Shown here: in pieces, positions 33,896 through 47,237 of the stretch
Position numbering within the stretch: the first letter of the stretch is position 1
Layout of the letters: every line of letters starts with the position of its first letter
DNA from: Chthoniobacterales bacterium
GTDB taxonomy: Bacteria > Verrucomicrobiota > Verrucomicrobiia > Chthoniobacterales > CAKUMP01
Length of the DNA: 47,463 nt
NCBI GenBank assembly: GCA_041748815.1
Contig: JBGTCP010000593.1
Span: 1 to 47,463, forward strand
Direction of reading: 5' to 3'
Notes under the pieces: generated by a model
The model's database searches: none
What the model was told of the DNA's origin: nothing
What the model saw: the letters and a program-made list of their open reading frames with translations, nothing else
Position numbers and translations under genes: made by a program

Positions 33896-34495
33896 TTAAG
33901 ATCCGCGTTGAGGTGCAACGAGCGTTTCGAGAGCGTTTGCGTAATGATCCAGTGCGTCCGCCTGTGGGATTTGTATTAATTCAGAGAGCTTTTGGTGCAT
34001 TTCGAACGCCCTTGCGCAAAACGGCCTGATTGAGTCCTGATTGACAAGAATTCTGACTTTCCTACTTCTCTTCTTTCGCAGCACGCGAAGCGGTTCGCAG
34101 CTGCATGCTGCGATCATTTGCAGGTTCGCCTGGTCCCGGAGATCGCAAAAATAGAACCAGTACGGACATAACGCGACCACCCCCGAGAAGAATGCCCTTA
34201 TTTCCGGCACCTCATAGACTTCCCGCTGGTCACCATCAAATCCCTGGATCGCAAACCGTATATTACACCGAAGTTCACGAATATGGGAATGGTCCTGCTT
34301 GTATTCTAGAAAATTTTTAATGAGTTCAATCCGGTTTTCTGTAATCATTTGGTGGCCTATCACGAAATATACCGGTGGTGGATCGGTCCATGATCCGCGC
34401 TCGACCTGTTTCTGCATCCACTTCTGCTTGCCATATCCGGCTGGCAGATCCCAGATCAAATCACCATCACTGCTATGTGCAATTGTGAACATCAT
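33896..34495 (-). CDS. Hypothetical protein translationally coupled to the sigma-like gene
   Basis: The start at MMFTIAHSS (34495) forms an ATGA overlap with the stop of the upstream gene (34492-34495). No recognisable motifs. Confidence 0.55.
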   Translation of the reverse strand: MMFTIAHSSDGDLIWDLPAGYGKQKWMQKQVERGSWTDPPPVYFVIGHQMITENRIELIKNFLEYKQDHSHIRELRCNIRFAIQGFDGDQREVYEVPEIRAFFSGVVALCPYWFYFCDLRDQANLQMIAACSCEPLRVLRKKRSRKVRILVNQDSIRPFCARAFEMHQKLSELIQIPQADALDHYANALETLVAPQRGS

Positions 34496-35178
34496 TCCCT
34501 CCCCTCCATGGCTTGCACAATCCGGCGAACTACAGGAAGTGCACGGGCCTCGCGCTGGCACGCCGCCTGACGGCTCATGGTCAATTGCTCGCCTGCTTCG
34601 GATTGCGTCAGCCCATCTTCAATTTGCAGACGCAGTATCTCGGCATCGATGCGATCTATCCTATTCTGAGCCAAAGCCTGGAGCAGCGCGGTAAGTGCAA
34701 CTTCCTTCAACCCTTCCGCCTCAGTCAACGACGCATCACTTTTCAGACGTTGTGTGAGTTCATCTTGCAGTTTTCTCTCAGCCATGTTTCGGCGTGCATG
34801 CTCCGAAAGACGCCGTGCCACCGAGAATCGGAGTGCCGAATTGATGGTCAGCAGCAGAGCCCGTTCGACATGCTCTGTAGCTTTACTACGCGTTGCCAGG
34901 GTTAATATTTTGCTTCCAGCAAGGTGGCTTTGATGCAACAGAATCAGTGCATCCTGACACACTTCTTCGAGGAGAGTAGGCGCAATATTCATTGAGCGAA
35001 TGCGTGGTTTCCATTGTGCGATGAATGCGGCTAGCATCTGAAAAAAATCATCTTCGCTTATGGCATCTCCGCTCCCGCTCTGAATTGCGATCCAATGTTG
35101 AGCGAGTTCCTGGAGCGATGGGTTGGCCAGCCAATCTTGGCTGGATGGACTGTTAGTATGTGTTGGTTTCATATTCAC
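34492..35178 (-). CDS. Sigma-70 family (ECF-like) RNA polymerase sigma factor
   Basis: Region-2-like LLEEVCQDALILLHQ and region-4 HTH LRLQIEDGLTQSEAGEQLTMSRQAACQREARAL. 228 aa. Confidence 0.6.
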   Translation of the reverse strand: MNMKPTHTNSPSSQDWLANPSLQELAQHWIAIQSGSGDAISEDDFFQMLAAFIAQWKPRIRSMNIAPTLLEEVCQDALILLHQSHLAGSKILTLATRSKATEHVERALLLTINSALRFSVARRLSEHARRNMAERKLQDELTQRLKSDASLTEAEGLKEVALTALLQALAQNRIDRIDAEILRLQIEDGLTQSEAGEQLTMSRQAACQREARALPVVRRIVQAMEGRE

Positions 35179-35283: not shown

Positions 35284-35514
35284 ATGAGCAAAAATCTCGA
35301 CCTTTCCCTTGCGCTCGTCCGCGATGCTGCTGCATCTCGGGGCGATTCACATAATTCGATCGACGAAGCAGTAGGGGCGATCTGCCGCGCACTTCATGAG
35401 ATCACGAGCGATGAGACTGATAGCGACACGCTTCTTGAGAAGTTTACCATTGTCGCTGCATCGGCCTTGGTTGCCATTGAGCATCTCATCGAGACAGAAC
35501 AGGAGGAAGACTAA
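35284..35514 (+). CDS. Small acidic hypothetical protein (76 aa)
   Basis: First ORF of the plus-strand chain. Its stop overlaps the next start (TAATG at 35512-35516). An AGGAGGA Shine-Dalgarno for the next gene lies inside its 3' end. Confidence 0.45.
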   Translation: MSKNLDLSLALVRDAAASRGDSHNSIDEAVGAICRALHEITSDETDSDTLLEKFTIVAASALVAIEHLIETEQEED

Positions 35515-36893
35515 TGAAGGGGGCCTGGACCAAAGAGGAGTTCGAGGAGACATTGCGTTTGCTTGGGATGGGATTGACGCCTGCCCAGATCGGGCGCAGT
35601 CTCGGACGTTCGGAAACCGCTGTGCGGCTAAAAGTCATCAAGGCTGGATATTCCTCCCGCGTGGTAGATCCGGGGGCAGCAAAGCCGTCATCATCATCTC
35701 TGGAAGGGGATGGATCAACTCCTGCTAACCCTGCTCCACGGTCTGAGCCCAGTGCGGGGGGTGAAACATTTCATTCCGGAGTATCTCTCGAGGCTGCCCA
35801 TGAATTGCTGGATATGCGGGACGAACGAACACGCAACCGTCGCGAACGTGCAGAGGCTATTGAAATCGCTCAGCGTGATCGGTTGCTCGATATTTTCAGG
35901 GAAGCCGTTTCAGGTTGCCTCATTGATTACAGGATTCACCCGCCGCAGCGCTCGGCACCGCAGCCGACCTCAGCGCACGCGGCAGTGCTGCTGCTCGGCG
36001 ATCTTCATGTTGGCAAGGTTTGCTCGGAGGCAGAAACCGAAGGACGTGCAATTTATAATCCCGCACATTTCGTCGCCCGACTCGCTCTGCTTGAGAGGGA
36101 AGTCCTGCAATTGATTGAGGACGGTCCAGCAGTCGATGAACTTGTCATCCTCTTTCTGGGAGATGTGGTGGAAGGCCATTTGGATCATGGCGCAGAGAAG
36201 GAAGATAATCTTTTAATTTCCCACCAATTTGTGTTGGCGACGCACCTGCTCTCACAATTCCTGTTGAGAGTCGCTAGTTCTGTCGAGACGGTGCGGGTAT
36301 ATGGGGTCGGTGGCAACCATGCCCGCTGGCCGGGACAGAGACGTCCACCCACGGTCGGGCGCGAGAGCAACCTCGACCACCTTGTTTATCGTGGGATTGA
36401 AATGATCGTGGAAATGGCGGATGCCAAACATATCCGGTTTTGTCTCAGTGAGGCTCCACGGCAGACTTTACAGGTCAAGACATCCACCATCGCTCTGCTA
36501 CACGGGGATCAAATCAGGGGAGGGGATTTCTACGTGAACGGCATCAAGCGAGAGGTATTCTCTTCGGTTCTCCGCCATGCGCCAAGCGGGAACATGCCAG
36601 ATATCTGGATCGCCGGCGACAAACACGTTCCGCAGTCTATGAGTGTTGGTTTAGGCCGCTGGTTGATCAATGGATCATTTGTGGGAGAAGACACTTTTGG
36701 TCAAAACTTTTCTCCCGCCAGCGCATCCCAAACTCTGCTTTGGATTTGTCCAAGTAAGGGCAAGTTCCTTCAAGCCGAGATCCGCCTGGATGGAGCCGTT
36801 CCAAGTGATCCCCAGCCGTATCATTTGAGCGCGAAACTCACTGAACTCATATCACCATTCGTCCGTCAAAACACCATCTATGAAAACAACTGA
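35514..36893 (+). CDS. Myb/SANT-like HTH fused to a calcineurin-type metallophosphoesterase
   Basis: N-terminus AWTKEEFEETLRLLGMGLTPAQIGRSLGRSETAVRLKV. Phosphoesterase motifs are LLLGDLHVG, LFLGDVVEGH, GVGGNHARW, ALLHGDQ and IAGDKH. Confidence 0.75.
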   Translation: MKGAWTKEEFEETLRLLGMGLTPAQIGRSLGRSETAVRLKVIKAGYSSRVVDPGAAKPSSSSLEGDGSTPANPAPRSEPSAGGETFHSGVSLEAAHELLDMRDERTRNRRERAEAIEIAQRDRLLDIFREAVSGCLIDYRIHPPQRSAPQPTSAHAAVLLLGDLHVGKVCSEAETEGRAIYNPAHFVARLALLEREVLQLIEDGPAVDELVILFLGDVVEGHLDHGAEKEDNLLISHQFVLATHLLSQFLLRVASSVETVRVYGVGGNHARWPGQRRPPTVGRESNLDHLVYRGIEMIVEMADAKHIRFCLSEAPRQTLQVKTSTIALLHGDQIRGGDFYVNGIKREVFSSVLRHAPSGNMPDIWIAGDKHVPQSMSVGLGRWLINGSFVGEDTFGQNFSPASASQTLLWICPSKGKFLQAEIRLDGAVPSDPQPYHLSAKLTELISPFVRQNTIYENN

Positions 36894-37311
36894 AACCCAC
36901 CACCAAACACTCCTCGCCTTGGCCCGGATGCCGCAGGCCGAATTCCTTGATGTCCTATCGCGGGCAAAGCAACTCTACTCACTGCTTTATGCTGAAGCGG
37001 AGTCCGGCGCTCGGCATTCCGAAGATCACGCAGACCCGCGAGGTCCGGGCATTCCGGAATCTCCGGAGGGGATTCGTCGGCGTCCTCAAATGAGGGATCC
37101 TGCACCAGGTTCGCTGCGAGAAACCGTTTATGAGATTTTGCAGCGGCAGGGAGGCCCCATCCAGCGGAAGGAAATCATTGAGCAAGTTGCGGCCATGCGC
37201 GGCGTTCCGGTTTCAGAGAGCTTGAAAGCGGCCACTGGGGAAGTTTTGCGCAATCAGCACGATCCCCACATCAGGCGTGTGGCCACTGGTATTTACGCAT
37301 TAGCCGCATGA
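36880..37311 (+). CDS. HARE-HTH domain protein
   Basis: C-terminal LRETVYEILQRQGGPIQRKEIIEQVAAMRGV...HIRRVATGIYALA fits the HARE-HTH pattern (RpoE-delta/restriction-associated wHTH). 14-nt overlap with the upstream gene. Confidence 0.6.
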   Translation: MKTTETHHQTLLALARMPQAEFLDVLSRAKQLYSLLYAEAESGARHSEDHADPRGPGIPESPEGIRRRPQMRDPAPGSLRETVYEILQRQGGPIQRKEIIEQVAAMRGVPVSESLKAATGEVLRNQHDPHIRRVATGIYALAA

Positions 37312-37655
37312 GGCGAAAGAAACGGGTTCGTTGTTTCCAGGTATGTCGCGAAGTGCGGGGAACGTGGTTTATCGTGGGGTACTGCTCGGGATGGGAGGTT
37401 GATTTTCCGAATTTTATCTTGCTGTCATATCCCTTCAAACGGGAGGAATTTCATTCGCCGCTTGGCAGCATTTCCTGCAGGAGTAAATGGACAGGGTCTT
37501 CAAGGCTTCCTGCACAAACCCATATTATCGATCCGATCCGGCCACAACCTTGGATGGAGATAGAGTATCACGACTTGATGGTAGTGACCGAACTGGTGGA
37601 GTCCCTCGGCCTCGACCTCCCTGAAGATGGCTTTCGCAGACACAGTTCGTCATGA
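37308..37655 (+). CDS. Hypothetical 115-aa ORF bridging the HARE-HTH and ATPase genes
   Basis: ATGA overlaps at both ends (37308-37311 and 37652-37655). The composition is Cys/Arg/Trp-rich and not obviously protein-like, so this could instead be a spacer. Confidence 0.35.
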   Translation: MRRKKRVRCFQVCREVRGTWFIVGYCSGWEVDFPNFILLSYPFKREEFHSPLGSISCRSKWTGSSRLPAQTHIIDPIRPQPWMEIEYHDLMVVTELVESLGLDLPEDGFRRHSSS

Positions 37656-38533
37656 ATTCGCCACGCATTTACAGCTATCAGCACCCCGTTTTTCATGCTT
37701 TGCATGCCACGGCTCGTGTGTTCTTCGGAGGCGCATGGCGATCCCTTCCGGTGCTTCCACGATTTGCCCGGTTTGTGTCTGGACCGACGGGGGCCGGGAA
37801 GTCGCACGTAGTGCGGGAACTTGCCCGGGTTTTGCGCATACCTATCCTTCAGCTCTCGGCTAGTGCGTGGATCCCCCTTGGAGCGAACCGCCGCGGCGCA
37901 GAGGTGACTTGGGTGGACGTGGCTGCTTTTTGCGGGCGAAATCCCCGTGGGATAATTCTGATCGACGAATTGGATAAAGTGCGTGGCGAGTCTCCGTGGC
38001 TGGACGCAATTCGTCCGGAAATTTTCAGCTTGATTGACGGCATTTTTCCTGAACCCGCATTGATCGGAGACGAGGAAAATACTTTTTCGGACAACCCCAT
38101 CGAGAGGGAGAAAATAGTGTGTAGACTCGCTGGAAGCATGCTTGTGATCGGGGCCGGTGCATTTCAATCAGCTTGGGAGCCACAGGCTGGCGTGCTGGGA
38201 TTTCACCCCACAGGGCTTTCGTCCGAGGCTGCGGTTGATCACAAAGTGATGGCTGAGGAAATACCCCGTGAAATTGCGAACCGATTCGTGGCTCCGATTC
38301 TCTGCCTGCCTCAGTTGTGTGAAGAAGATTACCGCTCAATGCTGGATGAAGTGGTCGGGCATCTGCCGCCTGAGTTGGCCACGTCCGTGCAGCGGGTGGC
38401 GCTGAACTCCCTGCATGAGGCAGTCGATCATGCGATGGGGGCAAGGTGGATTCAGCAATCTTTACTCCATGCATTGATCGAGATAGAGGCAGTGGTTGAT
38501 CGTGAATTCACAACGCCTGCCCCGGATTTGTAG
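37652..38533 (+). CDS. ClpX/HslU-like AAA+ ATPase module without N-terminal zinc-binding domain
   Basis: Walker A FVSGPTGAGKSHVVRELARVL, Walker B GIILIDELDKV. MLVIGAGAFQS...GFHP parallels ClpX ILFICGGAF...IGF. EIPREIANRFVAPILCLPQLCEEDYRSML parallels ClpX LIPEFIGRLPV...L. Confidence 0.8.
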   Translation: MNSPRIYSYQHPVFHALHATARVFFGGAWRSLPVLPRFARFVSGPTGAGKSHVVRELARVLRIPILQLSASAWIPLGANRRGAEVTWVDVAAFCGRNPRGIILIDELDKVRGESPWLDAIRPEIFSLIDGIFPEPALIGDEENTFSDNPIEREKIVCRLAGSMLVIGAGAFQSAWEPQAGVLGFHPTGLSSEAAVDHKVMAEEIPREIANRFVAPILCLPQLCEEDYRSMLDEVVGHLPPELATSVQRVALNSLHEAVDHAMGARWIQQSLLHALIEIEAVVDREFTTPAPDL

Positions 38534-38595: not shown

Positions 38596-38784
38596 TCATT
38601 CCCCTCGCGGGAATGCCGTTATCCATAGCACCACAAGGCATTCCAGCAGCATGGCTACAACGTAGCAAAGCACGCTCAGAATTCCGGCCACTACGCCGAT
38701 GCTTATCTGGCAAATGCTCAGCCCAACCTGGGTGAATGCCCGCAGCACCAGCACGGCAACCACGATTTGAATAATAATGATCAT
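38596..38784 (-). CDS. Small (62 aa) two-TM hydrophobic protein on the opposite strand
   Basis: MIIIIQIVVAVLVLRAFTQVGLSICQISIGVVAGILSVLCYVVAMLLECLVVLWITAF. GGAG lies 8 nt upstream of the ATG on the minus strand (GGAGAAACACCAATG). Confidence 0.4.
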   Translation of the reverse strand: MIIIIQIVVAVLVLRAFTQVGLSICQISIGVVAGILSVLCYVVAMLLECLVVLWITAFPRGE

Positions 38785-38949
38785 TGGTGTTTCTCCATTT
38801 CAATCGAGATTCCTCTCTCTTCGAATGGGCGCGAAAGCGCTCGGGCTAGACATCCTGATTTTGACTCCGAGCCGCTGAAAAACCGAGTCTCGAAAAAAAG
38901 TTCACTCTTCCACTTGCCCTGCCGCGGCAAAACCCGGAAATCCCCAAGT

Positions 38950-40053
38950 ATGGCACAAAAAACTAAAATTCAATGGTGTGACTCGACGATTAATCCGGTG
39001 ATGGGTTGCGGCGGGTGCGAACTCTATATCTCTCCTGGGGAAATCCTTGCTCATCTCGATCTGGAGATGGCGGGGCATGGCGCATGGCCACAGGGCACGA
39101 GTAGAGATATCTACAGGCAACTGATCACGGAAACATACGAGCGGATCGCCAATCTGATGCCCGGACATTCCAAGTCACTAACCACGACGAATATTTATCA
39201 TTTGCGTAAAGAGTTCCTTGCTGAGGTGGCATCAGGGCTTGGCAAAAAAGCATCCATAGCTGCTGAGCGGGTGATTGGCGAGTCGATCGCATGTTATGCG
39301 GCTAAAAATCACCTCAGCAAAGCACGCTCCATCGTGAACCCCGGGCGTGGTTTTAATACCGGATATGCACCAGCGTTTGAGATGGTGACGCGATTTGAAG
39401 ACCGGGTTTGCAAAGCTGCACTTTACCGCGATCTCCGTGGTCAATCTCGTGCCGACAAGCCGTGGCTCGACGACCTTCCCCGACACATTTTTGTCAGCGA
39501 TATGGGTGACGCCTTTTCGCGGGAGTCCGATTTTGAATTCCTCGAAAAGGAGGTCATCGAACCAATCCGCTCTGTTAGTGGCCAGCGTCACCGTTGGCTT
39601 TGGCTGACCAAGCGTCCGGATCGGATGGAGCGCTTCGGTGAACGGATCAACGGTTTCCCTCCCAACGTGATTGCTATGACCACCCTCACTGGGCCAGGCA
39701 CGCTTAACCGGGTCGATCAACTTCGTCGTGTTTCGGCGGCAAAACGAGGGCTCTCCATTGAGCCGCTCAGGCAAAGAATTTGCGCTTCAGAACTCGACCT
39801 GTCGGGCATCGATTGGGTGATTGTTGGGGGAGAAAGTGGTCGACGCGAACACGTCTGTCCATTCGATCTGGACTGGGCTCGCGAACTCCGCGACCACTGC
39901 CAAGTGAGCGGCGCGGCGTTTTTCTTGAAGCAACTTGGCCGTCGTCCGGTGGAGACTGGCAAGGAGTTCCGATTTCACGATAGTCACGGCGGTGAGTGGG
40001 ACGAGTGGCCGGAAGATCTCAGGTTCCGGGAAATGCCTCTCATTTCCACATAA
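38950..40053 (+). CDS. Phage Gp37/Gp68 family (DUF5131) protein
   Basis: The start MAQKTKIQWCDSTINPVMGCGGCELY matches the family N-terminus (IEWTD.TWNP..GC....GC..CY). The C-terminal DWVIVGGESG block is also typical. The upstream 61 codons of the ORF-track ORF are rejected. Confidence 0.75.
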   Translation: MAQKTKIQWCDSTINPVMGCGGCELYISPGEILAHLDLEMAGHGAWPQGTSRDIYRQLITETYERIANLMPGHSKSLTTTNIYHLRKEFLAEVASGLGKKASIAAERVIGESIACYAAKNHLSKARSIVNPGRGFNTGYAPAFEMVTRFEDRVCKAALYRDLRGQSRADKPWLDDLPRHIFVSDMGDAFSRESDFEFLEKEVIEPIRSVSGQRHRWLWLTKRPDRMERFGERINGFPPNVIAMTTLTGPGTLNRVDQLRRVSAAKRGLSIEPLRQRICASELDLSGIDWVIVGGESGRREHVCPFDLDWARELRDHCQVSGAAFFLKQLGRRPVETGKEFRFHDSHGGEWDEWPEDLRFREMPLIST

Positions 40054-40158
40054 TCGAATAAATGAAGCAACGTTTCGGCAAAGGAGGTTTTTGGGAGTTT
40101 CATGTTTTGGGCTAGAAATTTCTGACATTTGTCAGTTTTTCATTGTCAATAGAGATTT

Positions 40159-40842
40159 ATGTGTCAGGTTTGTGGTATGGCAACCGACGGTCAAAATTTT
40201 AATGCTCGAGTTCCGAACGTGGGAAAGTTTTTTTCTGCACTCAGAGATGGGGCTTCTGAAGAGGTCGTTGGCTGTCTCGCGAGCGCGGGACTGGCCCGTG
40301 AGATCACCAATCGCTTGCCCATGCCCGAGATGGGGCGTGCTGTCGAAGCATTGATTGCCAACCCTGGAACCCTTTTTGCTTCGGACGCTCGAACCGCGGT
40401 CGCTCATATTACTGACGTGCTGCGTCCCTTTTTTAGTGACGCTGAGGAAACCGAAGCTTCAAGGCATCTCAAAAACGCACTACACCGAGCCGCACTCAAT
40501 TTGTCTCAGACTGAGGCGCGAGGTAATTCTGAAGATTACCGACGGGCCCTTCATGTTGAACTTGGATTAAATTTGAACCGGGCAATTCTTTTGGAACCCG
40601 CCAGTGGCTACGTAATGGCAAAACAAAACTTGGATGCCGATGAAGTGAAAGCGTTGTGGAGCCGAGTTGAATCGACCGAGGCAAACAAACTCGGCGACGT
40701 CATCGCGAGTATTTGTTCAAGCCCCAAAGGAAAGCCTTCACACAAATTTACCAAGAGCGTTTCTTTTGGTCCGAAGATTGACTCCAGTTCCCGTGAGTCA
40801 CTTGTTGAAACGGTCTTTGTTCCATTGGAGGAATCAAAATGA
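40159..40842 (+). CDS. Hypothetical helical protein coupled to the QueC-like gene (QatB-position partner)
   Basis: 227 aa with no motifs recognised. Its stop overlaps the ATG of the next gene (ATGA at 40839-40842), and a GGAGGA Shine-Dalgarno for the next gene lies in its 3' end. An alternative start lies at 40177. Confidence 0.6.
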   Translation: MCQVCGMATDGQNFNARVPNVGKFFSALRDGASEEVVGCLASAGLAREITNRLPMPEMGRAVEALIANPGTLFASDARTAVAHITDVLRPFFSDAEETEASRHLKNALHRAALNLSQTEARGNSEDYRRALHVELGLNLNRAILLEPASGYVMAKQNLDADEVKALWSRVESTEANKLGDVIASICSSPKGKPSHKFTKSVSFGPKIDSSSRESLVETVFVPLEESK

Positions 40843-42314
40843 GTGTCACCTTGCAGCTGCCCCTCAGTTTCGACAGACCATCATGGAAGGCGAAGCGCTC
40901 GAAAAGATCGCTCAATGTCTCACGCCCTCTGTATCAATTTGACTTTTCCGGTGAGCAGGGATTTGGCCGCAAAACGATAGGGGCCCCAAGTATTCGGGAT
41001 TTTTATCTCCAGGACTGGATCATTAACCGGGGAATTTTCTCCGCCATCCGTCGAGAGCCATTGTTGCCGTGCCAGGCCGATTGGCTCTCGTTTGCGATGG
41101 CTGTATATTCTGCAGATCGCTTTTCGCCCCGCTTCCCTTTTGGCATCAGAGGGGCACGCTTCTGGCGAAGGTCGATTTCTTTAACGTTGTCTGTTGCCGA
41201 GCCGGATCGTTGGAATGCCGCAAAACTTGATCTGATCCACGCTCTTGAATTCCTTACCGGCGACGACTGGGATTTTGTGTTTCAGACCAGGAAACATGCT
41301 TTCGGCTGTGAAACGCAGGCGCATTTGCCTATGGAAATTCGGCGTAATTTGAGTTCGGTCGCTCTTTTCAGTGGAGGTTTGGACTCGCTGGCGGGAGTGT
41401 TGAACCATTCAGCAATACAACACACCCCTGGACTATTAGTTTCGGGCTTTACGCATGGAAGACTGCGCGATGCACAGGATCGACTTGTTTCGGAACTTCG
41501 ATCTTCATCCGCATTCAACGGAGATCACCTGCCCGTCAAATATTCGCTGACTGCCGTGCTGGATGATTCGGGCATCGAGTCAAGTCAGCGCTGCCGTGGT
41601 TGGATCCATGTCGCTATGGGCTTGCTTGCAGCGCAACTCGCTGAGACCAATGTCCTGCATGTCTTTGAAAACGGAATCGGAGCGTTTAACTTGCCCTGTT
41701 TCCGGTCGCAGTCGGGCAGTCAGTCCAGCATGGCAATGCAGCCTATCTTTCTTCGACGCATTTCCGTGGCGGCATCAAAACTTTTGGAGCAAAGCCTGTC
41801 GGTCGTCCATCCATACGCACTGAGTACCAAAGCGCAGATGCTCGACTCTGTGCCCGTTCGCATGTTCTCGGAAACTATTCAGAATAGCATTTCGTGTGAG
41901 CAATATCCAAACTACCACTCCAAGAAGGAGCAATGTGGGGTGTGTCCGTCGTGCTTGGTCAGGCGATCCGCGTTGTTTTCTGCAAAGCTCTCAGATCCGG
42001 GTGGCCTCTATACTCGTGACGTGATGGTGTCTGGAAGGCCCCGCTCATTGAAAGCTGGACGAGGACTCTTCATGATTGAAAATTTCGTGAGGCGACTTGA
42101 AGTGCTCAAAGGCACTGATAATCAGCTTAATTCCTTCCTGCTGGAATTTCCAGATTTTGCAGAACAGATCCGCGAATCTGCCGAATCACTCAATTTGGGA
42201 GAAGACTTGTTTTTGGCACGTTTCCTTGAAATGCAGAAACGATTTGTCAATGAGTGGGACGAATTTGCTGAAAAAATTCAGGACCTTCGTCACGCCTTGA
42301 AAAGGGCAGCGTAA
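40839..42314 (+). CDS. QueC-like PP-loop ATP pyrophosphatase with ~170-aa N-terminal extension (QatC/Cap9-like)
   Basis: PP-loop VALFSGGLDSLAG (SGGLDS at 41370-41387). The Cys cluster C-x12-CGVCPSCLVRR parallels the QueC zinc site C-x8-C-x2-C-x2-C. HPYALSTKAQM parallels QueC ETPLMWIDKAE. Confidence 0.8.
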   Translation: MSVTLQLPLSFDRPSWKAKRSKRSLNVSRPLYQFDFSGEQGFGRKTIGAPSIRDFYLQDWIINRGIFSAIRREPLLPCQADWLSFAMAVYSADRFSPRFPFGIRGARFWRRSISLTLSVAEPDRWNAAKLDLIHALEFLTGDDWDFVFQTRKHAFGCETQAHLPMEIRRNLSSVALFSGGLDSLAGVLNHSAIQHTPGLLVSGFTHGRLRDAQDRLVSELRSSSAFNGDHLPVKYSLTAVLDDSGIESSQRCRGWIHVAMGLLAAQLAETNVLHVFENGIGAFNLPCFRSQSGSQSSMAMQPIFLRRISVAASKLLEQSLSVVHPYALSTKAQMLDSVPVRMFSETIQNSISCEQYPNYHSKKEQCGVCPSCLVRRSALFSAKLSDPGGLYTRDVMVSGRPRSLKAGRGLFMIENFVRRLEVLKGTDNQLNSFLLEFPDFAEQIRESAESLNLGEDLFLARFLEMQKRFVNEWDEFAEKIQDLRHALKRAA

Positions 42315-42340: not shown

Positions 42341-43564
42341 ATGAGTCATCTTTTAGACCAACTTAATCCCAGAATCATTGGGGAAAAACTTCGCATTGCG
42401 CGAACGACGTGCGGGATCCGCCAGGAAGACGCGGCTGAACATATCGGCGTTGCTCGAACCACTATAGTTGCGATGGAGAAAGGCGAACGCCGGGTCAAGG
42501 CACGCGAACTGCAACTTTTGGCGGATTTATATGGCAATTCGATTCATGATTTAATGGATGAGGAGAAAAAGATTGTCGCATTGAGTCCCCAGTTCCGAAG
42601 CCCCCCCAAAGGACTGAACCTTGCCGCAGATGAAATTTTCCATGTCGCGCAGGAGTTGGAGGAGTTTGCCAAGGATTACCATGAACTGGAAAGTCTTACG
42701 GGCTCCCAGATGGTGCAGCGCTATCCTTCAGTTTATCGATACGATATTCCGGGTGTATCTGTGGAACTGCGTGGAGAAGAAATTGCCGGTGAGGAACGAA
42801 CCCGCCTGGGTCTTGGGGATGCACCGATTCTGGACTTGCGCGGTCTCTTGGAAGACTCGGTTGGCTTGCGGATTTTTTATCCCGAGCTTCCCTCACAAGT
42901 GGGCGGAATTTATGCATTCAACGAGGAGCTTGGCGGCTGTATTGCGATCAATCGAAAGCATCCTCCAGCACGAGCGGTGTGGTCTTTGGCTCATGAGTAT
43001 GGTCATTTTCTCACGACTCGAACTTCCGCAGATGTCAGCTTTTGGGACGAGCAAGGCTGGGGACGAAATATGGCGGAACGTTTTGCCGACGCATTTGCCC
43101 GGAATTTTTTGATGCCGCGATCAGGAGTGAACCGTCAGCTCAGTGAATTGGTTGCCTTGCACGGGAAGGGGATCACCGCAGCGGATATATTGATTCTCTC
43201 GCAGAATTTTCGGGTTTCTACGGAGGCCATGTTCCGACGCCTTGAAGAGTTGCGACGACTACCTTCGGGAACGTGGGACAACCTAATCGCCCAAAAATTT
43301 AAGCCCGAACAGGCAAAAAAGACCTTGGGGCTTCAGCCCGCCCTCCAGAAGGAGCCGTTGCTGCCGCTTCGATACCGAATGCTGGCCAAGGCCGCCTTCG
43401 ATCTGGAAGATGGTATTACGGAATCACAATTTTCCAAATATCTTCATCTAGACCTTGTTGCTGCACGGCAAGAACTGGATGAATTGCGGGCTGCTTCCGA
43501 TAAAAGAAGTGAGGATGGCTTTATTCCGTTTGATATTGGCACCCGTATTCTCGTTCCTGCCTGA
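42341..43564 (+). CDS. XRE-family HTH fused to an ImmA/IrrE-type zinc metallopeptidase (COG2856-like)
   Basis: HTH IGEKLRIARTTCGIRQEDAAEHIGVARTTIVAMEKGER. HEXXH motif LAHEYGHFL. Confidence 0.85.
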   Translation: MSHLLDQLNPRIIGEKLRIARTTCGIRQEDAAEHIGVARTTIVAMEKGERRVKARELQLLADLYGNSIHDLMDEEKKIVALSPQFRSPPKGLNLAADEIFHVAQELEEFAKDYHELESLTGSQMVQRYPSVYRYDIPGVSVELRGEEIAGEERTRLGLGDAPILDLRGLLEDSVGLRIFYPELPSQVGGIYAFNEELGGCIAINRKHPPARAVWSLAHEYGHFLTTRTSADVSFWDEQGWGRNMAERFADAFARNFLMPRSGVNRQLSELVALHGKGITAADILILSQNFRVSTEAMFRRLEELRRLPSGTWDNLIAQKFKPEQAKKTLGLQPALQKEPLLPLRYRMLAKAAFDLEDGITESQFSKYLHLDLVAARQELDELRAASDKRSEDGFIPFDIGTRILVPA

Positions 43565-43574
43565 GATTTGGGAA

Positions 43575-44120
43575 ATGGCGACTTTGCTCATCACAGATTC
43601 TTCCGTGTTGCTGAACGTGATCGCCAGTGGCCACGCACCTTCGATTTTTCGGATGTCGTCCTGGCAGTTCGTCGTTTGTCCAAAAGTGGCGGAGGAAGTG
43701 AAGTTTCTCCGTCACCGCATTTCCCGGGAGGTTCGTCCGGTAGAGCTCGCCCCGTATTTTGCGGCTTCAGATCTCCAGTGCATGGCACCAGAAACCGACG
43801 AGGATTTTGAGTGGTTGGTGGATTTTACCGCTGCTCTTGGTCGCGGCGGAGAAGGTGAAGCCATGTGTTTTGCTCTCGCGGCGAGTAGGAAGCTGGCGGT
43901 TGCCATTGATGATCGAAAAGCCATTCGCAAAGCGCGGCGATTCTCGTTGGGTCTGCCAATCATTTCGACGCCAGAGTTGATAAAGGAATGGAGCACCACA
44001 GCAGGCATCGAGAAAGCACCACTTTGCGAAGCGCTTCGGTCCATCTCTGATTGGGCGTGTTACAAACCGTCTGATGAGGACCCACTCGCAGCATGGTGGA
44101 CTGAAGTGCTCCAAGGATGA
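43575..44120 (+). CDS. PIN-like (DUF4411-type) nuclease domain protein
   Basis: LLITDSSVLLN, GEGEAMCFALA and AIDDRKA supply PIN-like acidic residues. It lies 10 nt after the ImmA gene, the usual partner position. The start is chosen at MATLLITD. Confidence 0.6.
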   Translation: MATLLITDSSVLLNVIASGHAPSIFRMSSWQFVVCPKVAEEVKFLRHRISREVRPVELAPYFAASDLQCMAPETDEDFEWLVDFTAALGRGGEGEAMCFALAASRKLAVAIDDRKAIRKARRFSLGLPIISTPELIKEWSTTAGIEKAPLCEALRSISDWACYKPSDEDPLAAWWTEVLQG

Positions 44121-44311: not shown

Positions 44312-45154
44312 ATGACACCACTCCAAAACATTCTCGACTCATACAGAAGCACCTCACAAACCGAGCGGGAAAAAGGCACTTATTTCGAGGAACTCATCCG
44401 CACTTATTTTCGGTATGAAGCCAGTTACGCCGACCTGTACAGCGAAATATGGCTCTTTGCTGATTGGGCCAGGGAAATCGGAACCCCTCAGTTCGGCATA
44501 TCCGCTAAGGATTCCGGTATCGACCTCGTTGCCAGGACCCATGGCACCGAGGAATACCACGCCATCCAGTGCAAATGCTACGCGCCAGATTATCGCGTGC
44601 GAAAGGCCGACATCGACAGCTTCTTCACCGCCTCCGGACGCAAGCCCTTTACTCAGCGCATCATTGTCACCACCACCAATGATTGGAGCGAACACGCCGA
44701 GAATGCACTCAAAGAACAGCAACCGCCTGTTTACAAGATCGATCTCCATGATTTAGAAGTCAGCCAGATTGATTGGGCGAAGTATCAGCCCAGTGCCCCG
44801 CCAGCGCTGAAGCCCAAGTATCCACTTTTGCCCCACCAAACCAGCGCCCGCACTCATGTGATGTTGGGATTCAAATCTGCAGATCGAGGCAAGCTCATCA
44901 TGGCCTGCGGCACCGGTAAGACTTTTACCAGCCTCAAGATCGCTGAGGAAGCTGCAGGTAAGGGCAAACTCGTCCTTTTTCTCGTTCCCAGCCTGAACCT
45001 TCTTTCCCAGACTCTTACCGAGTGGACCCAGCAAAGCTCCCTTCCGCTGCACAGCTTTGCCGTTTGCTCCGATGCTGAGGTGGGCAAGAAACGTGACGCT
45101 AATGAGGACATCGTGGAAACTTTCTCTCACGAACTGCGTTATCTTTTTACGTGA
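44312..45154 (+). pseudogene. 5' fragment of an Mrr-nuclease + SF2 helicase restriction gene (type ISP-like or related large helicase-methylase)
   Basis: Mrr/PD-(D/E)xK-like GIDLVARTH...YHAIQCK, then LLPHQ and helicase motif I ACGTGKTFTS. The frame ends after 280 aa, right after motif Ia, whereas such proteins exceed 1000 aa. Confidence 0.75.
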
Positions 45155-45429
45155 ACTAAGATTCCAAGCCCATCATCTTCGGATATTTTGGGATTCGCTA
45201 TACCTTGTATATCAAGCACGATTATATCATATTCGCCAGTTTCCAGATTTCGAAGATTTTCAATACGCTTCCAATAAGTCACGTTATAGCCTTCTTTCTG
45301 CAGCAACTTGTAGGGAAAAGCCGTCTCATCATCATCAACAACAAGTATTCTCGCACGTTTCCGCAGTTCTGACAGAGGTAGTGCTGGAGCGATCTCAGTG
45401 ATAGTTTTTGACTTAAAAAAAGAAAACAT
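45139..45429 (-). pseudogene. Receiver (CheY-like)-domain fragment, 3'-truncated
   Basis: RARILVVDDDE...YDIIVLDI...DGLGILVHVKR covers beta1 to alpha3 of a REC fold. It then stops at 45139, overlapping the truncated helicase end on the other strand. Confidence 0.45.
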
Positions 45430-45433
45430 CTTC

Positions 45434-45661
45434 CTACACGACAGCAAAAGTCCTTGTTGTGATCGCAGGCAAGGCTCCAGCATGGTCGGCATCGTTGTGG
45501 GTTAGGATAATTGCTTCGATTTGTGGCGGCGTGCGGCGTTCGTTTAGCCAATCGACCAGGGGGCTTCCCAAGGGGCCGACATCAATCAAAATCAAGTTCC
45601 CATTAGGCAGGCAAATTGTTGAGCAATCCCCCTGCCCTACATCCCAGAAATCGATCTGCAC
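45434..45661 (-). pseudogene. N-terminal fragment of a metallo-beta-lactamase-fold (ComEC-type) hydrolase
   Basis: MQIDFWDVGQGDCSTICLPNGNLILIDVG and ILTHNDADHAGAL (HxHxDH-type motif). Only 75 aa, where MBL domains need more than 200 aa. Confidence 0.5.
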
Positions 45662-45675
45662 CTAATCCTCCTCCC

Positions 45676-46287
45676 TTAGATAAAGATGAGCCGATCAATC
45701 GCCAGCACCTCGTTGTCAATCCCGAGCTTCACATAGGCGCCAAATTCATCGCCGGGCTTCAACAGGGACAAGGACCGCGCCACAGGTGGAGAGATCTTCT
45801 GTGTTGTGCCATCATGCCACTCGATGCGAAAATGGGGGACCCCGCTGACCAACGTGCCTTCCATGTAATGTGGAGTGGCCCGGTCGACGCAGAATGCTTG
45901 AAAATCGACCTCGTCCAAAATGGAGAGCCACCCGGCTTGCTCCTGTTCAGTGAGTTCACCTGAGTCCGCTTTGCTGAATAGCTGCAGGAATCTACGTGCC
46001 ATCTCTCGCGGCAAGTCTTCGGCTTTTGTCGCGGGAAGTCGGACATCCCAATTCAGAACCTCACATTCCCCGTTGGATGGATTCAACGCCACGCGAGGCG
46101 TGCGGGTCAAACGCAGGAGGAGTCTCCCTCCCTCCACCGGCAGGACCGTTCTCGGAAAGGCGTAGACGGTACGTTTGGGAGCAACTGGCTCGCGCTTACT
46201 CACCATGGCCGATGGTGTGGAGTGAGGATGACACTCTGCAGAGTTCCGGTCATAGTCTGCAACGGGTGCGGTTGGTGCAAAAATCAT
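45676..46287 (-). CDS. Hypothetical protein coupled to the TIGR04255-like gene
   Basis: 203 aa. ATGA overlap with the upstream gene stop (46284-46287). No motifs recognised. Confidence 0.55.
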   Translation of the reverse strand: MIFAPTAPVADYDRNSAECHPHSTPSAMVSKREPVAPKRTVYAFPRTVLPVEGGRLLLRLTRTPRVALNPSNGECEVLNWDVRLPATKAEDLPREMARRFLQLFSKADSGELTEQEQAGWLSILDEVDFQAFCVDRATPHYMEGTLVSGVPHFRIEWHDGTTQKISPPVARSLSLLKPGDEFGAYVKLGIDNEVLAIDRLIFI

Positions 46288-47237
46288 GAGGTGGCGGGCT
46301 TAAATGAGGCTTTGGCTTCGGGTGTGAAAACCAACTCAAACCGCTTTACAATATGGGCATGGGCCTCATCTAGCAAGTTGATTATCCGATCTGGATCCGC
46401 CGGAAATTCCCCGACTATCCGCACCACAAAGTCAACCAACACTGCCGCTCCGGTTGTGTGAGTGAGACAGTCTTTGACGGTAAGTTGCAGAGTGGCACCT
46501 GGAGGGCCCACTAAACGGACCGTGGCTGTGCAATCGAGTGGGGGCATGAGACATTCGTGTTCGCCTGGAATGTGGGCAAAGACCGTGATCACTTGTCCAA
46601 GTTTCAGATTGCCCTCGGAGTCGTGAAAATCGGGCACCGTGATGCGGGATAATGCATTTACGTAGTGCAGGGTGATATAGCGAATTTTCCCGACCTCGAA
46701 ATGCCGTAGCCAACGCGGAAGCCATTTTGAATATTCGTCTCGAAGGTTAGAATACCGCCGGGATCCCCCCTGAGCTGGGTTCGAGTGCATGTTCATCGTG
46801 AACTGACCAACCGGGCATCGTAAGCTCCAATCAAACCCCTGTTGGCTCGACTTGCGGGAGAACCGGGGCGTGACCTTCAAGATTGGTTCGGTCGAATCAA
46901 AGACGGGAATTCTTTCCTCGGTCACCTCCTTGACGTTGATTTGCCAGTCCTTCAAAGGCTCATACACCGGAAAGTCTGCTTGCACCATCGACCGCCAGTC
47001 CTCGAAGAGCGACTCAAACGTCTCTTCCGTCATGTCGCCATAGACACTTGCCACCCGCTCGATAATTGGAGGATTCTGGTAATAAGCTGGGTGCTCGACT
47101 GGATTCATAAAACTTACAGCAATAAGAGCATTGTGCTTGGCAAAGTGCTGAATAGCAAGCGTCCGGGCCAGAGCTTTGGCGGCGTGTTTTCGCGAGCAAG
47201 CGATCTGAGCAAGGCGTGGGGTCTTGGGGTTAGTCAT
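46284..47237 (-). CDS. TIGR04255-like conserved hypothetical protein
   Basis: YYQNPPIIERVASVYGD resembles the Y.N.P..E motif near the N-terminus of TIGR04255-family proteins. The likely true start is at 47108 (MNPVEHPAYYQNPP). Confidence 0.5.
   Translation of the reverse strand: MTNPKTPRLAQIACSRKHAAKALARTLAIQHFAKHNALIAVSFMNPVEHPAYYQNPPIIERVASVYGDMTEETFESLFEDWRSMVQADFPVYEPLKDWQINVKEVTEERIPVFDSTEPILKVTPRFSRKSSQQGFDWSLRCPVGQFTMNMHSNPAQGGSRRYSNLRDEYSKWLPRWLRHFEVGKIRYITLHYVNALSRITVPDFHDSEGNLKLGQVITVFAHIPGEHECLMPPLDCTATVRLVGPPGATLQLTVKDCLTHTTGAAVLVDFVVRIVGEFPADPDRIINLLDEAHAHIVKRFELVFTPEAKASFKPATS

Follow-up and report, generated by a model that had tools for sequence, protein, structure and literature searches.

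A 47,463-nucleotide stretch of the genome of a Chthoniobacterales bacterium (contig JBGTCP010000593.1, positions 1 to 47,463), hereafter the window, carries a QatC-like enzyme translationally coupled to a small helical protein, and this pair is the front half of one four-gene operon located behind one conserved promoter/operator. The operon, designated B'-C'-H-P, encodes in this order the partner protein B', the PP-loop ATPase C', a fusion protein H composed of a helix-turn-helix (HTH) domain and an M78 zinc peptidase, and a putative PIN-domain nuclease P. The four-gene cassette looks like an undescribed sister of QatABCD, an anti-phage system that was reportedly described by Gao et al. in 2020, and we consider it reasonably probable that the operon constitutes a distinct and widespread sister type of that system. 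A first-pass annotation, made from the letters of the sequence alone, had described the enzyme and its small neighbor; it overlooked the HTH-M78 gene located between the enzyme and PIN genes, and also the conserved operator.

Organization of the Operon

The first-pass annotation had read two open reading frames (ORFs), 40159..40842 (227 aa) and 40839..42314 (491 aa), which share an ATGA overlap, with GGAGGA placed 6 nt upstream of the ATG of the second frame. Both frames and these signals were found as it had described, as were the PP-loop motif FSGGLDS and the cysteine cluster C-x12-C-x2-C-x2-C of the enzyme. The length that it assigned to the partner protein had to be revised. An in-frame stop exists 5' of the small gene at 40150, and a conserved operator half-site (TGTGTCAG) contains the ATG at 40159. 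The start of this gene is the second ATG at 40177 in all homologues and according to the gene callers, which gives a protein of 221 aa with the N-terminus MATDGQNF. The start at 40159 was hence dropped in favor of 40177, because the homologues and gene callers begin there and the earlier ATG is part of the operator motif. For the PIN gene, a longer ORF from 43455 was dropped in favor of 43575 after alignment with its homologues.

The four genes are packed with the ATGA overlap between B' and C', followed by gaps of 26 nt (C'/H) and 10 nt (H/P). The ratio of nonsynonymous to synonymous substitution rates (dN/dS) between the window and its closest relative, locus L002, was 0.20 for B', 0.16 for C', 0.07 for H and 0.17 for P. 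Such ratios of 0.07–0.20 in all four genes indicate purifying selection, and therefore that the cassette is maintained. The positions of the genes and of the upstream elements are summarized in Table 1.

Table 1. Genes and regulatory elements of the B'-C'-H-P cassette in the window.
Feature	Position	Strand	Description
Operator palindrome CTGACATTTGTCAG	40122..40135		TGACA-W(1-2)-TGTCA, upstream of B'; likely binding site of the H HTH (predicted)
-35-like hexamer TTGTCA	40143..40148	+	Flanked by the two operator elements; most relatives have TTGAC(A/T)
Second operator half-site TGTCAG	40162..40167	+	9–10 nt 5' of the true start; overlaps the spurious 40159 ATG
B', partner protein	40177..40842	+	221 aa, all-helical, conserved tail MATDGQNF; presumed enzyme substrate, positional analogue of QatB
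C', QatC-family PP-loop ATPase	40839..42314	+	491 aa; N-terminal extension, QueC-like core, clade-specific C-terminal helical extension
H, HTH (XRE) and M78 (ImmA/IrrE-type) zinc peptidase fusion	42341..43564	+	407 aa, HEYGH intact; RmrA-like repressor/antitoxin
P, PIN-domain nuclease	43575..44120	+	181 aa, start MATLLITDSS; presumed effector/toxin

Conservation and Distribution of the Cassette

A scan of GTDB with one genome per species, for which the clade alignment was used as a query, gave 80 loci, and these were scored by using hidden Markov models built from the four cassette proteins. When an enzyme scored above approximately 205 bits and enough flanking sequence was present, H and P were located directly downstream in every case. 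The lower-scoring canonical enzymes were all without H and P and possessed a QatB starting with MGTS upstream. Two apparent exceptions, L009 and L058, are both cut by a contig end. The two loci encoding close homologues of B' likewise carry the four genes in this arrangement, as do loci reached via the enzyme. The order B'-C'-H-P was the same in approximately 44 loci distributed over at least seven phyla, where the partner consists of 198–221 aa, the enzyme of 482–494 aa, H of approximately 408 aa and P of approximately 180 aa, and the enzyme identity within the clade goes down to approximately 27–30%. A neighbor-joining tree of 76 enzymes contains one split that holds all the 42 cassette enzymes together with those of L009 and L058, which indicates, at the level of sequence, that the cassette enzymes form a monophyletic clade. 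The taxa comprise Verrucomicrobiota, Chloroflexota (including Dehalococcoidia), Gemmatimonadota, Acidobacteriota, Actinomycetota, Planctomycetota and an alphaproteobacterial plasmid, with most of the cassettes in Verrucomicrobiota, Chloroflexota and Acidobacteriota. The small ORF had been taken in the first-pass annotation as a companion of such enzymes, and this was borne out, since none of the related loci examined departed from the order and coupling of B' and C' seen in the window. Such pairing is far beyond chance.

Genes typical of defense islands were found next to the cassettes: a remnant of type IIG restriction-modification (R-M), Fic, HipA, AbiE/AbiJ, integrases, and a relaxase (TrwC). 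No carrier of the cassette enzyme clade was detected in a phage collection, and a plasmid collection gave one Methylocystis plasmid. On this plasmid of Methylocystis rosea (NZ_CP044329.1; L088, 88729–92461), the cassette adjoins AbiEi/AbiEii and AbiJ, and PGAP names the enzyme 7-cyano-7-deazaguanine synthase, H an XRE family transcriptional regulator, and B' and P hypothetical proteins. The RefSeq enzyme of this locus comprises the C-terminal 237 aa only; its gene is either disrupted or mis-called at the start. In a Dehalococcoidia locus (L027:7366–10318), the H gene was found in two pieces located approximately 1.7 kb apart with intact enzyme and PIN genes, which suggests an insertion into the regulator gene.

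The earlier statement that the usual companions of such enzymes are missing agreed with our scans, as no queuosine-pathway gene, TGT, CD-NTase, QatA (KAP NTPase) or QatD (TatD) was found among the 47 window ORFs that were scanned. The gene tables read for related loci also contained neither QatA nor QatD. The combination of a QatC with a PIN nuclease and an HTH-M78 protein was not mentioned in the open full texts searched, subscription papers being mostly beyond reach.

This conservation bears on what the pair might feed into. The first-pass annotation had proposed the adjacent DUF5131 protein, the ClpX-like AAA ATPase or the PIN nuclease as candidate outputs, of which the PIN nuclease proved to be a strictly conserved member of the operon. 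The other two genes are located just upstream in the window and are both present in L002, and the DUF5131 protein matches the PADLOC candidates PDC-M41B and PDC-M30B. Their synteny is however limited to L002: neither was found in L001 (an HD protein is located there), L003, L004, L006 or the GTDB loci examined, and both are outside the operon delimited by the operator. An output through either of them is hence very improbable.

Another explanation is that two independent systems are co-inherited without coupling, one a minimal QatBC-like pair and the other a RosmerTA-type pair of an H antitoxin and a PIN toxin. QatB and QatC by themselves confer defense against some phages (PMC13279940), antitoxins of the RmrA type with an HTH and a protease form two-gene modules with diverse toxins, PIN-like ones included (PMC10440598), and H itself scores as RmrA in PADLOC; each of these observations fits this explanation. 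Unrelated modules would, however, be expected to separate over a divergence at which the enzymes retain only approximately 27–30% identity, whereas the order and spacing are the same in the approximately 44 loci and the enzyme clade never occurs without H-P when the flank is available. The single operator/promoter, placed before B' only, and the short gaps of 26 and 10 nt also speak against a division into two systems, which we regard as unlikely.

The Enzyme C'

PADLOC scored C' as QatC with an E-value of 7.5e-55 and as QueC with 2.7e-4, and the NCBIfam QatC model gave 185.6 bits, which is under its equivalog cut-off of 280 bits. The sequences of QatC chains in the PDB matched C' from residue ~86 to ~386 (9zee_B, 4.9e-24; 9vlk_A, 1e-23). 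An AlphaFold2 model of C', constructed from 26 clade members, exhibited a pLDDT of 87.9 and a pTM of 0.89, and was compared with known structures by using Foldseek. Structures of QatBC are available as 9y01/9y02, 9zee and 9vlk. The best match was the QatC chain 9y01_B of a QatB-QatC crystal structure (E = 4.1e-20, TM 0.66/0.75, 424 columns), whereas QueC (2pg3 and 3bl5, 6e-4) and Cap9 (9nto_B, 1.2e-3) were matched in the core only. Judging from these sequence and model comparisons, C' is truly homologous to QatC and is distinct from housekeeping QueC, in line with the view taken in the first-pass annotation. The N-terminal region of approximately 170 aa that it had noted is also present, as FSGGLDS occupies residues 177–183 and the PP-loop thus starts approximately 175 residues in. 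This region is not an extra element, since the model of C' aligns with 9y01_B across the 424 columns, and it is thus the ordinary extension of QatC.

The four cysteines of the zinc site are C353-x12-C366-x2-C369-x2-C372. Of the signature motifs that Libby et al. 2026 (PMC13329287) list for QatC, C' has most, namely D-x4-R…WxR, DxWxxxF, RxR, ENG, P-x4-TK and CGxCxxC-x2-RR. The substrate loop reads STRTTHP in all the 32 canonical QatC sequences, S-R-A/G-x-H-P in the Verrucomicrobia-type clade, and SSMAMQP in the window. The two threonines of the canonical loop (T278/T280) are essential in QatC of P. aeruginosa (PMC13279940). The adenine-stacking residue F237 is replaced by His in the enzyme subclade of the window. 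At 41728–41745 of the window (C' residues 297–302), the substitutions R298M and H301Q were observed at positions that are Arg and His in nearly all QatC of both types; the enzyme of L002 has Leu and His there. The C-terminal extension of C' showed no alignment with that of canonical QatC and contains its own EW..F motif. The canonical extension binds QatB via a basic patch (PMC13279940), so that an unrelated extension in this clade fits a different partner.

It is extremely improbable that C' is a metabolic QueC paralogue producing preQ0 or another 7-deazaguanine, with the small ORF as an unrelated neighbor. RefSeq does call a relative 7-cyano-7-deazaguanine synthase, and Pfam QueC matches C' weakly at 23.5 bits, over only the final 64 profile positions (144–207). 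The QatC models, however, score approximately 160 bits above QueC, the Foldseek values given above favor QatC in the same way, and the substrate-recognition residues of QueC are missing from C'. Canonical QueC is a protein of approximately 220 aa that matches the full-length profile and has que neighbors, while C' has more than twice this length, a partial profile match, and no queD, queE or folE near the pair in the profile scans of the window ORFs. Its partner is translationally coupled and co-varies with it, and even canonical QatC fails to complement a queC mutant (PMC13329287).

The Partner Protein B'

The AlphaFold2 model of B' (pLDDT 81.7) is all-helical, consisting of nine helices with residues 1–9 disordered at the N-terminus, in agreement with the earlier description of a helical protein outside the known families. 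Pfam, PADLOC and NCBIfam gave no match to B', nor did the sequences of the PDB. Among 5.8 billion proteins, a word-indexed search recovered only two close relatives. A profile search of 1.84 billion representatives gave 509 clusters at E ≤ 1e-3, of which 266 also reached E ≤ 1e-10, and their members nearly all consist of approximately 200 aa and align from residue 1. These matches indicate that the B' family is real but unannotated.

The N-terminus of this family was examined for 148 full-length members. Position 2 is Pro in 68%, Ala in 16% and Ser, Val or Thr in 10% (the five residues together, 93%), position 3 is Asp or Glu in 88%, and position 5 is Asp in 87%, while none of the 148 starts with MGTS. 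The wider family is hence described as M-P/A-(T)-D/E-x-D-x-F, and the subclade of the window, which has an inserted Thr, as M-P/A-T-D-G-x-D/N-F. The small residues that occupy position 2 in 93% of the members permit removal of the initiator Met by methionine aminopeptidase.

The comparison with QatB that the first-pass annotation had suggested for this protein turned out negative. An hhalign comparison between a 27-sequence partner family and a 29-sequence canonical QatB family, both built from loci fetched in this analysis, gave a probability of 0.6%. The B' family profile did not recover the QatB chains 9zee_A and 9vll_A from PDB sequences, PADLOC detected no similarity to QatB, and Foldseek of the B' model against the PDB gave nothing better than E = 1.1, with 9y01 absent. 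This last negative result is meaningful because the enzyme model recovers both 9y01 and 9y02 from the same library. Together with the Pfam/NCBIfam scans and phmmer against the PDB, these results led us to reject B' as a QatB homologue; as far as sequences and models can indicate, B' is a positional analogue of QatB and not a detectable homologue. The two proteins also differ in the length of the disordered N-terminal tail, which is approximately 5–9 residues before the first helix in B' and 30–90 residues in QatB.

The N-terminus of the partner and the substrate loop of the enzyme vary together. Partners starting with MGTS accompany enzymes with the loop STRTTHP, those with MPTDGxDF accompany GSQ(N/S)SR(A/G)xHP and RxRxxxH, and those with MP(D/E)xDxF accompany G(T/V)DNYRGVHPR and RxRxxxF. 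The partner N-terminus tracks the enzyme loop, as would be expected if the enzyme pocket reads the tail in a manner comparable to the QatB-QatC and CdnD-Cap9 structures, and such reading is thereby supported indirectly.

The Conserved Operator

The palindrome upstream of B' occurs once in the window against 0.02 matches expected, and once per locus of approximately 13 kb, approximately 40–60 bp before the start codon of B'. A positional count located it at that place in 36 of 46 cassette loci, and in approximately 41 of 46 when mis-called enzyme starts were allowed for. Among 42 other loci it was found in one, L009, which is itself of the cassette type and cut by the contig end; the canonical loci had none at that place. 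Upstream regions were further aligned for 11 loci with enzymes that are 35–86% identical to that of the window. The sole invariant bases besides the start codon were the palindrome, the TTG of the -35-like box, and the TGTCA half-site, which lie at fixed spacing in the 11 loci within otherwise unconserved sequence. The -35-like hexamer would act as a promoter element. A terminator scan flags the palindrome as a weak terminator-like hairpin. It is regarded as an operator and not a terminator, because it is conserved across phyla and keeps a constant distance from both the -35-like box and the start codon.

The HTH of H is the obvious reader of this palindrome, because an XRE-type dimer fits it and no other HTH exists in the cassette. 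Binding of H to the palindrome is hence predicted, and the near-invariant HTH recognition region of H parallels the conservation of the operator across phyla. No such palindrome precedes H in the cassette loci; it is located upstream of B' only.

The HTH-M78 Protein H and the PIN Protein P

H matches Pfam Peptidase_M78 (6.2e-13), HTH_31 (2.1e-10) and also HTH_3, and its best PADLOC match is RmrA (2.7e-21), followed by CapP (1e-15) and CapH (5e-6). Its HTH resembles those of DdrO and other XRE repressors. DdrO is a repressor that is cleaved by the M78 protease IrrE. The segments RTT.vAiEKGeRr, in the HTH, and HEYgHFL are at least 90% conserved across 41 distinct H sequences, and H is the best-conserved member of the cassette. 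The C-terminal ~100 aa are also conserved, and this region could be a candidate for the part that binds P or B'.

These features allow H to be considered as a transcriptional switch only, of the CapH/CapP, ImmR/ImmA or DdrO/IrrE kind, in which case the system would consist of B', C' and the PIN protein, and H would have no antitoxin role. The conserved palindrome at the promoter, the CapP and CapH matches and the DdrO-like HTH are consistent with such a switch. Regulators of this kind are, however, usually located upstream or divergently, whereas H sits between the enzyme and the nuclease, and its conserved C-terminal region could bind P or B'. This explanation overlaps with the best one and does not oppose it; in the strict form, without any antitoxin role, it appears quite unlikely.

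The alignment of the P family exhibited invariant D8, E41, E95, D112 and D113. Matches to Pfam PIN were obtained for 10 of 29 family members, of which the best was 4.7e-7, and the P protein of L038 matched PF01850 at positions 2–117 of 120 with 28.3 bits against a cut-off of 23.6. The P family profile gave no match among PDB sequences. The protein of the window is hence assigned as a putative PIN domain, because its family members match Pfam PIN and the acidic residues are conserved. The assignment was settled by these Pfam matches of family members and not by hhalign against a single VapC-type PIN protein (L002).

Comparison with Known Systems

The cassette shares with QatABCD the QatC scaffold composed of the N-terminal extension, the SGGxDS core, the Cys4 zinc site and most of the motifs. 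It also shares a translationally coupled, all-helical partner of approximately 200 aa located directly upstream, in which the extreme N-terminus is conserved, as well as the overall arrangement of a four-gene operon that includes a nuclease and is sited in defense islands. The differences begin with the partner, which is not QatB in sequence or fold: QatB has MGTS (against M-P/A-(T)-D/E-x-D in the B' family), a long disordered tail and a ten-helix domain, whereas B' has MATDGQ, a short tail and nine helices. The cassette enzyme differs in the substrate loop and in the partner-binding C-terminal extension, and scores below the NCBIfam QatC cut-off. QatA and QatD are replaced by the HTH-M78 protein and the PIN nuclease, and the cassette has its own operator. 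QatA and QatD widen the range of phages against which QatB and QatC defend (Gao, Wassarman and Kranzusch, PMC13279940), and a QatBC-like core could plausibly be combined with other accessory genes, because the two proteins suffice against some phages. It was also reported that qatA and qatD exist beside only ~34% of the QatC cluster, with no other neighbor above the threshold (Libby et al., PMC13329287).

RosmerTA is similar in that H has the RmrA architecture (XRE HTH and ImmA-like M78 peptidase) and is followed by a small putative toxin. It is, however, a two-gene system, while in the cassette H-P is always preceded by the QatC-like enzyme and its partner under one operator. The type IV form of CBASS (antiphage signaling based on cyclic oligonucleotides) is similar in that a QueC-family enzyme, Cap9, acts on the N-terminus of a partner protein, CdnD, as is presumed here for C' and B'. 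It differs in that the window scans found no CD-NTase, Cap10 (TGT) or cyclic-nucleotide effector for the cassette. The N-terminus of its CD-NTase reads M(G/S)G(G/S)GG, and Cap9, a minimal QueC, retains the Tyr/Asp that recognize 7-carboxy-7-deazaguanine (CDG), whereas C' is QatC-like and lacks them. Other CBASS operons are regulated by an HTH repressor and an M78 protease, CapH and CapP; in the cassette, the HTH and the protease are fused as one protein. ImmR/ImmA and DdrO/IrrE resemble the predicted regulation of the cassette in having an XRE-family HTH that binds an operator of palindromic type, with repression relieved upon a stress signal by a zinc peptidase of the M78 family (HExxH); the cassette has both activities on one polypeptide and in a defense-type operon.

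Proposed Mechanism

If the cassette is a sister type of QatABCD, the following scheme would apply. Dimers of H would bind the TGACA-W-TGTCA operator and hold the operon in a repressed state, and a phage- or damage-derived signal would activate the M78 domain to lift this repression, as in ImmA/ImmR, IrrE/DdrO and CapP/CapH. C' would bind B', adenylate a carboxylate with ATP, and join the activated carboxylate to the N-terminal tail of B' after removal of the initiator Met (for the specificity of methionine aminopeptidase, see PMC13279940), comparable to Cap9-CdnD and QatC-QatB. For the latter pair, low-level modification of QatB by QatC was reported (PMC13639016). The PIN nuclease would replace QatD (TatD) as the nuclease arm, and H may restrain this nuclease too in the style of a RosmerTA antitoxin.

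The presumed acceptor in the cassette is Pro or Ala followed by acidic residues on a short tail, instead of Gly, and the enzyme loop is different, so that the adduct need not be 7-amido-7-deazaguanine. A more specific proposal, which we hold only tentatively and consider somewhat improbable, is that this clade installs a modification other than the deazaguanylation of an N-terminal glycine known from CBASS and QatABCD, perhaps on the N-terminal Pro or by way of the conserved Asp/Glu of the tail, and that the modified B' trips H and frees the PIN nuclease. If true, the operon would be a self-contained circuit that senses, modifies, cleaves and kills, with its own conserved operator.

Several points weigh against the assignment to a sister type of QatABCD. 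The defense function, the binding between B' and C', the modification, the binding of H to the operator and the toxicity of the PIN protein were all inferred. B' exhibits no relation to QatB that the sequence and model comparisons could detect. Its tail is short, and insertion into the enzyme active site is therefore less obviously possible. The residue at the acceptor end of B' is usually proline, a secondary amine, and not glycine. The threonines that are invariant in canonical QatC (T278/T280 of P. aeruginosa) are not retained in the cassette enzymes, and R298M and H301Q may mean that the enzyme of the window is altered or weakened, despite its dN/dS of 0.16. The P protein of the window itself falls under the Pfam threshold, and was assigned as a PIN domain via its family and the conserved acidic residues.

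Surroundings of the Cassette in the Window

On the 3' side, a 280-aa ORF at 44312–45154 (+) corresponds to the first ~275 of ~1650 positions of a type IIG restriction-methyltransferase model (3.4e-110), and contains Mrr_cat_2 and the beginning of ResIII. A large R-M gene was apparently truncated here, just 3' of the cassette, with this ORF as what is left of its N-terminus. Two short overlapping ORFs at 45139–45661 (−) are apparent gene fragments, of which one (117 aa) matches the PADLOC candidate PDC-M43A and the other (75 aa) matches the N-terminus of a metallo-beta-lactamase fold. These fragments and the R-M remnant suggest a decayed defense island. A 317-aa protein encoded at 46284–47237 (−) exhibited a weak match to TIGR04255 (24.4 bits, cut-off 30), a sporadically distributed family.

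On the 5' side, the DUF5131 protein is encoded at 38767–40053 (+) and also weakly resembles the radical-SAM mobile-pair protein A family; its gene probably starts near 38950 (MAQKTKIQWCD). The AAA ATPase beside it (37652–38533, +) matched no defense model. The region 35514–37311 (+) encodes a 459-aa protein with a weak match to calcineurin-like phosphoesterase and a 143-aa protein with a weak match to a winged-helix domain (Rok), and a sigma-70 region-4 protein is encoded on the opposite strand at 34492–35178. These genes are a possible border of a mobile element bearing the island. A transfer RNA scan of the window gave none, and therefore no integration site was identified. The remainder, 1–33732, is chromosomal and devoted to carbohydrate metabolism (GH95, GH3, GH31, GH13-like, a fucosidase-like protein and a SASA esterase). 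It also encodes LacI and GntR regulators, a PEP-CTERM protein, two proteins with N-terminal methylation motifs, and two very large ORFs (1176 and 1400 aa) without a match in Pfam or PADLOC. Such a gene content is consistent with a host resembling Verrucomicrobiota and agrees with the closest relatives of the cassette.

Implications

The reaction catalyzed by QatC and the manner in which modified QatB stops phage are stated as open questions in the field, and robust QatC activity could not be reconstituted in three structural studies of 2026. The sister system proposed here would keep the enzyme scaffold while changing the substrate protein to a non-homologous one, together with the acceptor motif and the nuclease, and would add a repressor-protease. 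It would hence allow an independent comparison between the two systems, in which the features common to both are likely essential and those that differ mark the substrate specificity. In a genome collection with species-level sampling, an architecture that current annotation misses was found for approximately half of the closest QatC relatives, and surveys that give 98% of qat loci as canonical appear to miss the cassette type. Verrucomicrobiota, Chloroflexota and Acidobacteriota are phyla whose defense systems are poorly charted. The B'-C'-H-P cassette would thus offer an additional and independent means to learn how QatC enzymes act on proteins.

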